In this document: positions 289 through 6,002 of the stretch, in pieces
Layout: each line of letters begins with the position of its first letter
Numbering within the stretch: position 1 is the first letter of the stretch
IMG/VR virus record: IMGVR_UViG_2778261630_000006
Location: 1 to 39,415 of that record
Strand: one strand, 5' to 3'
DNA length: 39,415 bases
Source of the DNA: a virus
Taxonomy: Duplodnaviria; Heunggongvirae; Uroviricota; Caudoviricetes
The notes under the pieces: generated by a model
Told to the model about the DNA's origin: nothing
Database searches by the model: none
What the model saw: only the letters and a program-made list of their open reading frames with translations
Program-made: the position numbers and the translations under genes

Positions 289-2874
289 CTACTCTATCTC
301 TTTTGCTTTTTTAATTATCAATTCAAGCTCTGTTAAACGAGATTCAATACGTTCACACCTTCTTCGCTGGAATGCAGCCTCCAACCACAAACATTCATCT
401 GGACGCAATCCCCAACGCTCACCAGCATGTACAACCAGTTCCGTGTCACCAGTATCGTATTCTTCAAAGTATTCGTGAACGATGTCTTCTCCTTCAGGGG
501 ATTTAGCTATAAATGACACCTTGCGCTGTGCCATTACAGGTTGGTACTCATCATCCCATTTATCATGACATAGCAAGCCAAATCTTGTTCCATCTATCCC
601 CTTTGCAAGAAACGCATCTCTTACCTGCTGTGCAATTGCTCCGAAATGCCAACGAGCAGTATCCGAACCTTTAGCCTTAATATCGGACAACCACTGGTAA
701 ACGATAATATTTACGTCACCCCATGCGTCAAGAATTGCATCCTGATCCACCTCCATGATTTCTGAAAGTTGCTCTACTGTCAGTGGCTTTGTTTTCAATG
801 TCTGGTCTGAAGTATTTATTGCCCCATTAGTTGCATATACTTGCGTCCACCGTTTAGATGATGTCCCACATGATGACGTATTATCTTTATTAGCACTTAT
901 ATAGCCATTAACCTCCGCTGACTGACCGATATACGAATATGAAGATGTTGATAAGGGAGATTTAAATATCCATTGAGCATTGGTAAAGTCATAAATACCG
1001 GTATCACCTTTTTCACTAACATGAAAAGTTACATTCCGTAACGTATTCTTTGCATCATAACGGGCGGCTTGTGTTGTTGCCCTCGAAACAGTGAATCCTT
1101 TGTCATCAAGGTTTGCCTGCTCTATGACTTCACCACCAGGCATAATTTTACCAAGGCTTAACAAACCAGAGTTAGTGACAATATCATGGGTTGAATCAAT
1201 GATAATACCAGGCTGATTTCTTGATGTTGTTTTTACATGCATGACCTGTTGTGGCATTAATGTGTAAAATGTAGTTTCTCGCCCACTATCACCATCTGGT
1301 ATGCCATTTGTATTCCCCATTACAAGGTCATACCCACCTGCAATCATACGGAAAAACATTGCTTCTGGTTCATATGTAAGATTGCTAACATCTGGCGTTC
1401 CGGTATCATTTGGATCTGCTATTTCATAGGCTCTTCCTGCACCTGCCTGTATTTGCTGCACCCCAAGATAAACACCATCAAGTGTGTACTGATGCAAATA
1501 TTTTCTGGTTGAAGAATATGCAGATCCAGCCTGACAAAAATAAATAGCAGTACCGTCACACGCAACTGTTTGCATATCCCTCACAAAATCGGCAATTTCA
1601 AATTCAAAAGTTGCTTCATTACGATAATCGTAATTGTACGCCTGCGGGTTAATAAATTTGCTGGTATCAAATACTTTTACATAATAGCGAATTTGATCTG
1701 GTGTTGATGGGCTCTCACCAGGGCCAACATAACGTTTTGCTGTAGTAATCAGCCATCGACTCATAGGGTCGGTGCATAAAACATTTACCTGATTCTCGTA
1801 ACCATCTTCCCATATGAGAAAAAACTCTGGTTCAATTTCACCACCATCAGTAGGGGTGAATCTGGTGATATACTTTGCGCGATCCTCTCCTTTAGCTGTG
1901 CCAGCTAACCCCCATATCTGTAACTGGCCTCTTGTGTTACGAAAACCAACGCGCCCTATGGTTAAACCAAGACATTGATGTCCTAATTCTCTACTACCTT
2001 TAGTCTCCCAAAGAGGAGTTAACTCTTCATTCCCAAACCAATTATAAGCAACAACTTTATTAACTTCGTCACCAGAACTAACGCTGCCACTCACATTTAC
2101 CAAGCAATAAAGAACACTGTCATAATAATCAAGAACAGCACCCTGTATGACAGTATTTTTAATTGTTGCCAGTCGCAACCCTGACTTAACATGATTAGGA
2201 GTAGAAGGTCTGAAACCTGTATACATCCCCTTTTTTATAGTTTGTATTCTTTTTTCAGTAAAATCAGCATCTGGCAGTAATCGATTCTCTGTGCGAAAAT
2301 AGCCATTTATATACTTATTTCCATCAAAAACTTGATCTGTTATATATGTATTACCCCTTAGATCAACAATCCTTCCTGTGATTTGTTTTTCTAACTCTTG
2401 AAAAGATAATGTGTCATCGGTGATGCCATCACCTTTTGCTCCCCATCCGCGAGGGTCAGCGTCATCACGCCACCGAGACATCTGCAATTCATGATATTTT
2501 TTAGCACCTTCCGGGTCTTCTAATTGTTGTCTTAATTGGTCAGGATCGTACTTAAGCACATTCGGAAAATAGAACTGCTGCGTACCATATGCATCGTAAA
2601 CAGCCATAGAATGGCCTTGCACGGTAACGAATTTGGAAATCTGTCCGTTGTATACCGGGTATCCAGCAGCATTGATAACGATTGGCTGTGGCACCTGAAC
2701 ATAAGTACCATCTTCTCGTTCCAGATATACTGGAATCTGGTTTTCTGGATTTACCGGATCTGTGTCAATCTTACCGATATAAATTTTTCCATTTGCTACG
2801 GTTTTAAAAGAGCTAGCCATTGTGAAGAGTTGCGATGGCATACCTATCACAACATTTGGGGTTATATCAGGCAT
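289..2874 (-). CDS. Tailspike: P22 gp9-type head-binding N-terminus, pectate-lyase-like beta-helix body, C-terminal chaperone-like domain
   Basis: N-terminus MPDITPNVV...[21 protein letters not shown]...VLKYDPDQ matches the P22 tailspike N-domain. [11 protein letters not shown] motif downstream. C-terminal HFGAIAQQ segment. Start set at the second in-frame ATG (2874), which has an AGGA ribosome-binding site; the ORF extends in frame to 2967. Confidence 0.8.
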
Positions 2875-3216
2875 ATTAGTCATCCTGTTTGAAGATTTAG
2901 ATATTGAAGAAAACGGAATGACTGCAGACAAAGATGCAATTGTTTTGAAAAATAACCTTCTATTCATTTAAAAACCATGTAACATGAACAAAACGATTAT
3001 TTTACAATACTCAAGAATCTTGATCAACAGGCATATTATTTATGCGCTTAATGCGTCACTTACAAAAATAAAAACAAGTAATACCTTTATTCCTATCGTC
3101 CATGATTTTTATTTTCAAACATTATTAAATAACAATTCCCATTTATAATATCTGTCATTTAATTTGCTCCAGATACAAGGAATCTCCGCAGCATGGCTAC
3201 GGTGAATTTTGGGCAT

Positions 3217-3239
3217 AAAAAAACCCAGCCGAAGCTGGG
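3217..3239 (-). terminator. Rho-independent terminator downstream of ant
   Basis: Plus-strand cccagc-cgaa-gctggg preceded by a run of seven A (a T-run on the minus-strand transcript). Confidence 0.6.
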
Positions 3240-3258
3240 TCGTTGCGTTGGTTATCTG

Positions 3259-4137
3259 TCAGTAGTTATGTACTGAAGGAGGTAATTCTTTATTCTTAAG
3301 TCTCATCCATGCGGAAAGATTCGTTGGTCCGTCTGGCTCATTGATATCAACATCTCGTGTGTGATTGATTAAAACGTCTCTCGCCATTCCGATAACATAC
3401 GAGAATTCATGACCGTAGTCGTAGCATCTGCCGGAATAGTTCGATTGAATTTGTTTTAATGCCGGATACAATTCGCGGAATAATGCCTGTGAACGGTTGG
3501 CATAATCCCATAGCCATACAAGGCTGTTTGCTTCTTTTGCAGAAAGCTCGTTGGTTTTCTTATCTTGTTTGCCAATGAACTCACCTTCAAGCACTACCCT
3601 GTGGATGTACTCTACGGCCAGCGGGATTTGTTCAATTGAAAGTTCATCAATGCTGTCAATACCAAAACGCTGATGAACCATATTGTATGCATCGTCATAG
3701 CGAAGTCCTTTCTTTCCTACCAGCATGTTTACTGCATCGCGTAGCGGTGTTCTTTCCTCAACAGTGGTTTTCTTGCCTTTCACATACTTGCCATGTTTGC
3801 GAATTGAAGGCAGAACTTCTGCTGTTACCCACTTGCGGAATTTGTGCGGGACTGAACCTTTATTGACGGCATCGCGGCAGCGCAGAACCAATGTATACAT
3901 ACCTGACTCGCTCACAATGCTTAGATTCTGCTCACCACCAAGGGTGTAACTTAAAGTTACTCCCTTTTCATCGTCATCAAGTGCAGTAAGCGCCTTGCGT
4001 GAGTTAGTCAAAGCTAAAGCATCACAAACATCTTTAGCTACAAACCACGGCTCGCCGCACTTGTTAATTACGCGGATTTCACTGTCGCCAAATTTGAAGA
4101 TGGTGAAATCGTTTTGTGCCTTTGCTATACTTTTCAT
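3259..4137 (-). CDS. ant: Antirepressor Ant
   Basis: Position after arc as in P22 immI; recognisable antirepressor sequence. Start at internal ATG 4135-4137 with AGGAAAT ribosome-binding site. Confidence 0.85.
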
Positions 4138-4205
4138 GTCAATATTTCCTAAGACGATTTGTTGATACCGAAGCCCTGACTGTTCCCGCAGTTGGGGCTT
4201 CAACT
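4138..4205 (+). ncRNA. sar: Candidate sar-like antisense RNA across the arc-ant intergenic region
   Basis: Extended -10 (TGcTATACT, 4123-4131) on the plus strand just inside ant; 13-bp hairpin with UUCC loop at 4170-4201 immediately after the arc stop. Ends not determined. Confidence 0.35.
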
Positions 4206-4367
4206 TTACGCGCCAATGCGTCCTTCCTTCTTAAAACTTTCCATTACTCTCTGATAAATCTCAGAGTTAACAGACCGACCATTCTCTTCCGCCACCTTGC
4301 GCACCAAATCCAATACTTCTTTAGGCCACCGCAAATTGAACTGCGGCATTTTGCTCATTCCTTTCAT
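4206..4367 (-). CDS. arc: Arc repressor (ribbon-helix-helix)
   Basis: Translation [53 protein letters not shown] is essentially P22 Arc. Confidence 0.92.
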
Positions 4368-4383
4368 ATTCACCTCACAATAT

Positions 4384-4400
4384 GGGTCCACGGTGGACCT
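4384..4400. promoter_or_regulatory. Mnt operator (Omnt)
   Basis: Near-perfect dyad GGGTCCACGGTGGACCT in the arc-mnt divergent region, matching the P22 mnt operator as recalled. Confidence 0.65.
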
Positions 4401-4409
4401 ATTGAGAAT

Positions 4410-4430
4410 ATAGTAGAGTGCTTCTATCAT
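4410..4430. promoter_or_regulatory. Arc operator (Oarc) overlapping Pant
   Basis: ATAGTAGAGTGCTTCTATCAT matches the P22 arc operator as recalled. Confidence 0.65.
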
Positions 4431-4457
4431 GTCAATACACTAACTTGGAGTGATGGC

Positions 4458-4712
4458 ATGGCTAGAGATGATCCGCACTTTAACTTCCGCATGCCTTTGG
4501 AAGTAAGAGAAAAATTAAAATACAGAGCAGAGTCAAACGGTAGATCAATGAACTCAGAATTGTTGCAAATCGTCCAAGATGCTCTATCGAGACCATCTCC
4601 TGTAAAAGGTTATCGCAATGAAGCTGAACGATTAGCCGAGATGCAGGCTGAACAGTTCAAGTCTGTGGTATTTGAGACACTTAAAAACATGTATGGCAAG
4701 GATGCAAAATGA
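4458..4712 (+). CDS. mnt: Mnt repressor (ribbon-helix-helix)
   Basis: Translation MARDDPHFNFRMPLEVREKLKYRAESNGRSMNSELLQIVQDAL... matches P22 Mnt. Confidence 0.9.
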   Translation: MARDDPHFNFRMPLEVREKLKYRAESNGRSMNSELLQIVQDALSRPSPVKGYRNEAERLAEMQAEQFKSVVFETLKNMYGKDAK

Positions 4713-5290
4713 TCGATTACAACCCAGCAAAAAAAGAAGTCATTGCAGCTAAAAAGTGCCTAGAGCAGATGAAATCATCTACAAACCATGATGATTTTGA
4801 AATGCACTGGCGAGAATGTCTTGGGCATATAGAAAAGTCTTTCAGTAAGTTGCTCTGTGCAACAAAGCCGGTTAGTGGAAAATTTAGCAGCCACTTCAAC
4901 CAAAAGTTCATGCTTAGAAAAACAGACAAAACCCTTGCTTACCTTCACCAAGCAAGAAATGCTGATCATCATTCCACTATGGAAATCTCAAAACTTGAAC
5001 CTCCTTATACTACTCTTGGGGCATTTCCGGGAGCAAGAAGCCATTATATTAAAGAGTTAATCATTGATTCAACAGGTAAAATAGCAAAATACGAAGGCGA
5101 CCCTATGATAGTTGAGTTTCATCCAGCAACAACTATGCCTATAACCGTAAGAAACCAAGGCAAAGATTATCCACCTCCAACAGAACATCTTGGCGAAAAG
5201 CTTGTTGATATACATCCATCTGTTCTTGCCTATCTCGGTATACAATTTTATGAAAAATGGATAGATGAGTCGTGTGCAACGTTTAGATAG
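4709..5290 (+). CDS. Hypothetical protein, translationally coupled to mnt
   Basis: ATGA overlap with the mnt stop. 193-codon ORF in an AT-rich segment. No family recognised. Confidence 0.6.
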   Translation: MIDYNPAKKEVIAAKKCLEQMKSSTNHDDFEMHWRECLGHIEKSFSKLLCATKPVSGKFSSHFNQKFMLRKTDKTLAYLHQARNADHHSTMEISKLEPPYTTLGAFPGARSHYIKELIIDSTGKIAKYEGDPMIVEFHPATTMPITVRNQGKDYPPPTEHLGEKLVDIHPSVLAYLGIQFYEKWIDESCATFR

Positions 5291-5457
5291 TTATTTTTGA
5301 TAATTTCAAGTATTTCCTCTTGACTTTGATTTACCCAAACGTGATCACACTCATGAAACCAGATTATGCTTCCTGTTTCGCCTTGTGCAATATAGGTGAT
5401 CATGTTTTCATTAACAATTATTACTGAGTTATCATGTGCGCAATTTAGTTTTATCAA
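5248..5457 (-). CDS. Possible small convergent ORF (69 aa)
   Basis: ORF overlaps the 3' end of the 4709-5290 gene by 43 bp. Weak ribosome-binding site. Could be spurious. Confidence 0.2.
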
Positions 5458-5519
5458 TTCGCATATCCTATCGTGACAAAGTAACTAGAAAAACTAAAGA
5501 GGTTGGTGTGTCTGATTCT

Positions 5520-6002
5520 ATGAGTTACGCTGTGCTAGTTGCCGCAACTCTATTTATTGGGATAGGGTTGCAGATTGCGTGGTTCTTTTTCTCTAGTTTT
5601 ATTAAACGCAAAAGAATTGAATCAAGGATATCTGAGATTTCTATTGCTATAGGGAAAAATGCTGAAAATTCAGAGAATGAGGCCTGCGCACTGAATTACC
5701 TTAAAGAAAAGTTTTCCCCTGAAAAATTTGAAAATAGAATTACTGATGCTCTTGGATTGGTAATATCAGTAATTCATATGCCACTAAGTTTGCTGATAAC
5801 AGTGTGGTACTTCGCCATGATCGCCGGAAGAATATTTGGCTTCATGAATATAGAGCCTGTAGTTCTTTGGGTTCCAATGATACTGCAACTGTTGTTAAGC
5901 GTTGCTATCTTTATTTTTTCTGTTTTTATAAAAATTGTCTTTGGAAGATACCCCGGAGAAGCGAAGGGATTTAATAAAGAATTCATAAAAACTATAAAAT
6001 AA
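5520..6002 (+). CDS. Inner-membrane protein at the position of P22 sieA; candidate superinfection exclusion protein
   Basis: About 160 aa with an N-terminal transmembrane segment and a C-terminal hydrophobic cluster. Sits between gp16 and mnt. Start is ATG 5520 or upstream GTG 5508 (AGAGG ribosome-binding site). Confidence 0.55.

Follow-up and report, generated by a model that had tools for sequence, protein, structure and literature searches.

The plus strand of the window (the whole 39,415-nt stretch of DNA analysed, which represents an E. coli phage or prophage of the P22-like, Lederbergvirus type) very probably carries, at positions 4138-4206, the sar antisense RNA gene of this element, an orthologue of sar in phage P22. 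The Rfam sar family, RF00262, matches positions 4139-4205 of the plus strand over the full length of its model (model positions 1-68 of 68) with a score of 73.4 bits (E 1e-14), 30 bits above its gathering score of 43 bits, and a covariance model built for this analysis (R1) matches 4138-4209 at 87.8 bits. RF00262 is the sole Rfam family matched in the 39-kb window, a search for tRNAs and other Rfam families across the same stretch having found none. The predicted RNA was delimited by alignment with P22virB-3 and epsilon34, in both of which GenBank annotates sar and its promoter, and in P22virB-3 the terminator too. In this alignment the -35 and -10 elements of the promoter, the ant ATG, the sar 5' end, the second of two predicted stem-loops (SL2), the 3' tail and the arc stop codon all occupy the same columns. 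The predicted 5' end (+1 at 4138/4139) abuts the ant start codon and covers the ribosome-binding site on the opposite strand, and the predicted RNA is complementary over its whole length to the leader of the ant mRNA, its 3' end reaching 1 nt into the arc stop codon. A preliminary description of this DNA had proposed a sar-like antisense RNA arranged as in P22, a proposal borne out by the RF00262 match, the alignment to P22virB-3 and epsilon34, covariation and the immI context. The sar element is real and conserved, but it belongs to an already-known RNA family in a known context and can be found by an Rfam scan. Biologically it is what the P22 literature predicts, namely that a P22-type immI carries its sar RNA, and there is nothing unexpected in this. 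The main value of the result lies in annotation, since the records examined for E. coli and Kapi1 lack the sar RNA gene: none of these has an RNA annotation at sar, and among the matches listed protein features alone are given.

The surroundings of the predicted gene are those of a P22-type immI region, comprising mnt, divergent Pmnt and Pant promoters with their operators, arc and ant, all in the late operon upstream of the tailspike gene (Table 1). Read on the minus strand from high to low coordinates, the order is arc, the 68-nt spacer, ant, an intrinsic terminator and the tailspike gene, and in P22 a terminator is annotated at the same place after ant. In sequence, arc, Pant/Pmnt, the operators and mnt are nearly identical to those of P22, with 98% identity to P22 over the Pant/Pmnt promoter-operator block (4384-4435); the host is E. 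coli for the window element vs Salmonella for P22. On the far side of mnt, a 193-aa ORF of unknown function (phrog_23516, without a Pfam match; 4709-5290, plus strand) has a start codon that overlaps the stop codon of mnt (ATGA) and is therefore probably co-translated with mnt; the ORF that follows it (5436-6002, plus strand) encodes a SieA-like superinfection exclusion protein.

Table 1. Features of the immI region and its flanks in the window, ordered by position.
Feature	Position	Strand	Basis and remarks
Tailspike ORF	289-2967	-	Downstream of ant
Intrinsic terminator after ant	3222-3241	-	Terminator scan; GACCCAGC-TTCG-GCTGGGTT then T7
ant, antirepressor, 292 aa	3259-4137	-	Pfam PF02498 + PF10548; PHROG 245, anti-repressor Ant
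Psar -35 hexamer, GTGAAA	4103-4108	+	Promoter scan; columns of annotated P22 and epsilon34 Psar
Psar extended -10, TGcTATACT = TGCTATACT	4123-4131	+	Within ant codons 3-5 (Ser-Ile-Ala)
ant translation initiation region, target of predicted sar	4135-4150	-	Sequence reading
ant start ATG	4137-4135	-	Aligns with P22 ant ATG
Predicted sar RNA, 68-69 nt	4138-4206	+	RF00262, covariance model R1, alignment to annotated sar
Stem-loop 1 (SL1), 7-bp stem GUCAAUA/UGUUGAU	4138-4166	+	Fold
ant Shine-Dalgarno, AGGA	4150-4147	-	9-nt spacer to AUG
Stem-loop 2 (SL2), predicted sar terminator hairpin	4170-4201	+	ViennaRNA and Rfam consensus
arc-ant spacer, 68 nt			Between arc stop and ant ATG
arc stop codon, TAA	4208-4206	-	
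arc, 53 aa	4206-4367	-	Pfam Arc PF03869; 52/53 identical to P22 Arc
Mnt operator	4384-4406		Coordinates transferred from OQ031658 annotation
Pmnt	4402-4430	+	Promoter scan; overlaps Pant
Pant, TTGACA-17-TATATT	4435-4407	-	Promoter scan; divergent from and overlapping Pmnt
Arc operator	4410-4430		Coordinates transferred from OQ031658 annotation
mnt, 84 aa	4458-4712	+ (divergent)	Pfam Arc + Repressor_Mnt PF11423

The predicted promoter of this RNA, Psar, is of the sigma-70 type (GTGAAA and TATACT separated by a 17-bp spacer, with a TG upstream of the -10), lies as a whole (4103-4131) within ant codons 2-11, and is homologous in position to P22 Psar, with which it aligns base for base. Its plus-strand extended -10, which the preliminary description had located within ant and pointing at the arc-ant spacer, was confirmed. 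Taken by itself the motif is unexceptional, with 5 promoter-scan sites found in the window against 5.1 expected, and TGNTATACT occurs there 2 times against an expected 0.74, which is not significant, so that the support for Psar is its homology and conservation. The sole other exact copy of TGNTATACT (1866-1874, plus strand) is antisense within the tailspike gene, and in the P22-like prophage BTP1 a long antisense RNA runs over the tailspike and injection genes (PMC7067206). Since the first IMG/VR scan used a pattern in which the promoter and 12 nt at the start of sar were fixed, their conservation in its output is circular, and the scan was repeated with SL2 as the only anchor, giving 45 distinct upstream sequences in which the promoter was unconstrained. 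In this SL2-anchored set positions T1, A2 and T6 of the -10 hexamer are invariant (45/45) and TGn precedes the hexamer in 43 of 45; of the -35 hexamer, all 45 have the G at position 3 and 42 the T at position 2. The end of the -10 hexamer always falls exactly 3 nt before CAT, which places +1 at the base adjoining the ant ATG. Because this conservation and spacing hold across 19 different Ant N-terminal 12-mers, Psar constrains Ant residues 3-5, which are Ser/Asn/Ile, then Ile/Leu/Val, then Ala/Ser/Gln.

The plus strand of 4136-4212 folds with -30.6 kcal/mol (z = -6.3, 0/200 shuffles as good) into two hairpins. The ant-proximal half of the spacer is taken up by SL1, the weaker of the two and absent from the preliminary description, with a 15-nt loop (4145-4159) that contains the anti-Shine-Dalgarno UCCU at 4147-4150. 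For SL2, ViennaRNA and the Rfam consensus agree on a stem of 14 pairs, including three G.U, capped by a UCCC loop (4184-4187); without its closing U.G pair it would count 13 pairs with a 6-nt loop. Thus the hairpin described earlier as a 13-bp stem with a UUCC loop is indeed present on the plus strand at 4170-4201, but in a reading that is one register off. The accompanying claim was that it fills the spacer directly after the arc stop; SL2 stops 4 nt short of that codon and occupies the arc-proximal half of the 68-nt spacer only. It is followed by a tail, AACUUU (4202-4207), whose U-tract is short (AACUUUAC, three U) and is not flagged by a simple terminator scan. Termination of sar at SL2 is predicted from the identical P22 sequence, which is annotated as the sar terminator, and the stretch homologous to SL2 in OQ031658 is annotated as a terminator. 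P22 has the same short U-tract, overlapped there by the final codons of arc and its stop, and relatives with other downstream genes have longer U-runs after SL2. A second small hairpin, ACGCGCCAATGCGT then CCTTCCTTCTT (4208-4232, plus strand), lies 3' of the sar tail inside the last arc codons, and P22 small-RNA sequencing (PMC13397905) includes a 104-nt read block at sar that ends in the homologous T-rich run. Given this hairpin and the P22 read block, a longer read-through isoform of sar may exist, a feature inseparable from the coding constraint on Arc.

Conservation of the two-hairpin structure was followed through an IMG/VR scan with the promoter and the start of sar as anchors, which yielded 75 distinct sar sequences after five pattern matches (L061, L062, L075, L092, L128) had been dropped as chance matches without sar structure. 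Each of the 75 distinct RNAs shows the same two-hairpin fold from +1 onward. Scores against RF00262 exceed the gathering score in 611R6, CUS-3, Emek and S135 (87.7 down to 48.0 bits) and fall below it in a Klebsiella phage (38.6 bits) and in Edwardsiella phage Edno5 (30.2 bits). In a plain MAFFT alignment of the 75 sequences, made independently of R1, indels mis-registered the 3' arm of SL1 and RNAalifold recovered SL2 alone, with compensatory changes in 8 of 13 pairs. The covariance model R1 was built, and 78 matches with E <= 1e-6 were then re-aligned; a search with R1 at E <= 0.01 gave weak reverse-strand matches (24-29 bits), and the alignment from that search was discarded. In the 78-sequence R1 alignment, which is fitted to the model, leans towards its own structure and consists of related sequences, 91.3% of the cells are paired vs 83.4 +/- 0.4% in 500 shuffles (0/500 reaching the observed value), and 112 cells are changed on both sides vs 22 +/- 4 in the shuffles. 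Sliding the partners by 1-3 columns, as a control, left 33-49% of cells paired. Changes on both sides are seen at 10 pairs of the two stems, with 97.5% of cells paired and 7/14 pairs compensatory in SL2, and 78.6% of cells paired and 3/7 pairs compensatory in SL1. The preliminary description had named lack of conservation of the hairpin in related immI regions as an outcome that would speak against it; when this was checked, the hairpin proved to be the most conserved part.

The resemblance to P22 sar extends to the location in the arc-ant spacer of immI, the strand relationship, the position of Psar inside ant and its extended -10, the length of 68-69 nt, the two hairpins with an anti-Shine-Dalgarno in the SL1 loop, and the accompanying Arc, Pant/Pmnt and operators. 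In the base-for-base comparison with the P22 sequence that had been suggested earlier, a single loop base differs over the linker, SL2 and 3' tail, and epsilon34 is identical to the window from the linker ACC through SL2 into arc. The P22 SL1, in contrast, differs (GUUGGU...ACUGAC vs GUCAAUA...UGUUGAU in the window; 14/32 identical) and is still paired, with 6 stem pairs and a 16-nt loop vs 7 pairs and 15 nt, and the window SL1 matches a different ant leader. Its computed duplex amounts to -50.8 kcal/mol with the cognate leader vs -17.4 with the P22 leader, and the part of the window sar that covers the ribosome-binding site is of a sequence class other than that of P22. Ant itself is a mosaic of a Bro-N N-terminal and a P22_AR_C C-terminal domain (Pfam): P22 Ant shares 85% identity with it over the C-terminal 171 aa and bears no relation to its N-terminal 120 aa, where Bro-N replaces the P22 N-terminal domain.

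Both the ant N-terminal domain and SL1 are of the Kapi1-like type, not the P22 type. Sar of Kapi1 (Escherichia phage vB_EcoP_Kapi1, MT813197) is one loop base away from that of the window and the ant DNA is ~98% identical, and directly after the sar tail Kapi1 diverges into a different Arc-family gene. Among E. coli prophages, that of strain MB53 has the very same sar RNA sequence and that of MB15 matches 4100-4210 at 100% identity; this window-type Psar-sar cassette (4100-4210) is found at >=95% identity in ~450 of 5,426 complete E. coli genomes (RefSeq), including O157:H7 strains. The swapping of SL1 and the Ant N-terminal domain relative to P22, with the terminator half and arc kept, is a modest point of interest. 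It is on this ground that the sar gene itself is a mosaic joint, in which the terminator half goes with a P22-type arc and the target-covering half with the ant N-terminal module.

Selection acts on the sar (plus) strand, as follows from the higher plus-strand stability of SL2 in 75/75 family members (means -21.1 vs -15.5 kcal/mol). In the window the values are -21.9 kcal/mol (plus) vs -16.0 (minus) for SL2 and -5.6 vs -0.6 for SL1, the minus-strand SL2 being weaker because three G.U pairs become A.C mismatches. This asymmetry bears on the earlier description of the hairpin as bidirectional, and on the wider view that it serves as a bidirectional intrinsic terminator or arc-ant attenuator, limiting Pant transcription into ant as well as ending sar. 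Such a role, very unlikely on present evidence, would fit a near-palindrome that can also form a hairpin in the arc-ant mRNA, with 4170-4201 still folding at -16.0 kcal/mol on the minus strand. However, the ant-strand stem, 6 kcal/mol weaker, is broken by two internal loops where G.U pairs turn into A.C mismatches, the minus-strand region as a whole folds no better than shuffles (z = -1.45), and the sequence that follows the stem on that strand, GGUAUCAACAAAUCG, lacks a U-run and is not flagged by the terminator scan. A stable hairpin with a U-run, which defines an intrinsic terminator in either direction, is thus not found on both strands. Moreover, ant and the downstream tailspike gene, on the same strand, need transcription through the spacer, and for P22 late-operon read-through of the spacer is described in PMC12111858. 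The bidirectional terminator was rejected on account of the weaker minus-strand stem and the missing U-run, and SL2 is taken as a one-way (plus-strand) terminator for sar. A different objection to an RNA gene in this place is that the spacer might be coding, with ant beginning at an upstream TTG (4203) to give a 314-aa protein. The frame is indeed uninterrupted from TTG 4203 through ATG 4137, and the near-identical gene of Kapi1 (MT813197) is annotated as a 945-nt ant from the upstream TTG. Yet in-frame stops occur upstream of the ant ATG, within those 22 codons, in 29/75 relatives including P22, indels shift the TTG-start frame in others, and ATG 4137 has a good Shine-Dalgarno, AGGA, 9 nt 5' of it and corresponds to the start used by RefSeq and by the P22 annotation; in RefSeq, E. 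coli MB53 has the identical ant start. On the strength of the stops in the relatives the spacer is taken as non-coding and the TTG-start extended ORF was rejected as having next to no chance of being correct, the ATG matching window 4137 being the conserved ant start. The same stops indicate that the 945-nt ant of Kapi1 is probably an over-extended CDS with a wrong start; as annotated (MT813197, 410-1354, equivalent to window 3259-4203), it spans the entire sar gene and overlaps arc.

The mosaic surroundings raise the further question of whether the block owes its conservation chiefly to module shuffling, as a recombination 'boundary sequence' between exchangeable phage modules, with its RNA features incidental. 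Several observations would suit this: SL2 is identical across phages that differ in the ant gene and in the flank on the arc side, one SL1 is found with different ant N-termini, homology to P22 and homology to Kapi1 switch within the element, and in the CUS-3 record an annotated 'boundary sequence' starts inside the sar region of that phage. What a DNA-level joint would not be expected to show are strand-specific G.U pairing, compensatory changes that keep both stems paired, and a promoter at a fixed distance from the ant ATG, all of which are present here and make this explanation highly improbable. A recombination joint and an RNA function are compatible, in that a conserved functional RNA gene can double as a crossover point. 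Extending the reading of the block as a functional sar gene, one may tentatively, and with considerable doubt, regard sar as a modular adaptor whose invariant parts (SL2 plus tail, and the stretch that begins at the Psar -10 and runs to the ant ATG) would be crossover points by which P22-like phages swap arc-type repressors and ant N-termini, and whose SL1 variants would be antisense specificity classes. The same SL2 occurs with ~20 different SL1 sequences, the same SL1 occurs with different flanks on both sides, and the SL1 duplex with the P22 leader is, as given above, much weaker than the cognate one. Such SL1 classes may be analogous to plasmid incompatibility groups, and if the adaptor reading were true, a resident prophage sar would silence the ant of a superinfecting phage only where the two share SL1. 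The pattern may also be simply ordinary phage mosaicism around a conserved gene.

How the predicted sar would act can be outlined from the P22 system. A sigma-70 promoter with an extended -10 in the first ant codons would fire convergently to Pant and late-operon transcription, with the transcript starting at the G adjoining the ant start codon and stopping at SL2, 68-69 nt on, at the arc stop codon. This RNA would be perfectly complementary to the ant mRNA leader and would show the anti-Shine-Dalgarno UCCU in the 15-nt loop of its 5' stem-loop. Pairing with arc-ant transcripts would mask the ribosome-binding site of ant as far as the base that precedes its AUG, so that the antirepressor would not be translated, while arc, upstream, would be unaffected. 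It is from P22 experiments that the sar transcript is expected to be made, to have its 3' end after SL2 and to block ant translation. The P22 sar work (Liao et al. 1987, Wu et al. 1987, Schaefer and McClure 1997) is recounted in PMC7968456 and PMC12111858, and the mechanism, pairing with the ant mRNA that blocks ribosome binding, is also summarised in PMC2629481 and PMC11016777. The P22 spacer is transcribed from Pant and from the late promoter, according to PMC12111858, P22 sar transcripts were detected by small-RNA sequencing, according to PMC13397905, and sar-defective P22 mutants have been reported to deregulate Ant. For the window, the computed duplex between sar and its cognate leader amounts to -135 kcal/mol, the complementarity being complete by construction.

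Other small antisense RNAs share some of these traits. The c4 antisense RNA of the P1/P7 immI (Rfam C4) is likewise a small phage RNA that silences ant, via pairing upstream of ant, but it is processed from its target's own transcript and uses separate complementary sites, and is not a convergent, fully complementary cis-antisense RNA; no Rfam C4 match was found in the window. The OOP RNA of lambda and P22 and the countertranscript RNAs of plasmid copy control are short, constitutive cis-antisense RNAs with hairpins and an intrinsic terminator, but their targets are others (the 3' end of cII and rep leaders, respectively) and they have no sequence homology to sar. Members of the sar family give weak, sub-threshold matches to ctRNA_pGA1 (24-27 bits, gathering score 45), which reflect generic shape.

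Some relatives depart from the common arrangement. Two IMG/VR phage contigs carry sar-like copies ~3 kb apart, one (L057) at 1226-1298 and 4268-4341, the other (L020) at 1903-1977 on the minus strand and 5034-5104 on the plus strand, the second copies scoring 46 bits. That of L057, between 57-aa and 243-aa ORFs, has a TGcTACAAT -10 box, CAT, two hairpins and a U-run, and these double elements look like arc/ant-type modules in tandem, with one antisense RNA apiece. In 611R6 (L006, 879-1100) and Emek (L009, 884-1105) a 73-aa ORF lies between arc and ant, and sar is found in the orf73-ant spacer rather than in an arc-ant spacer, with a longer U-run after SL2.
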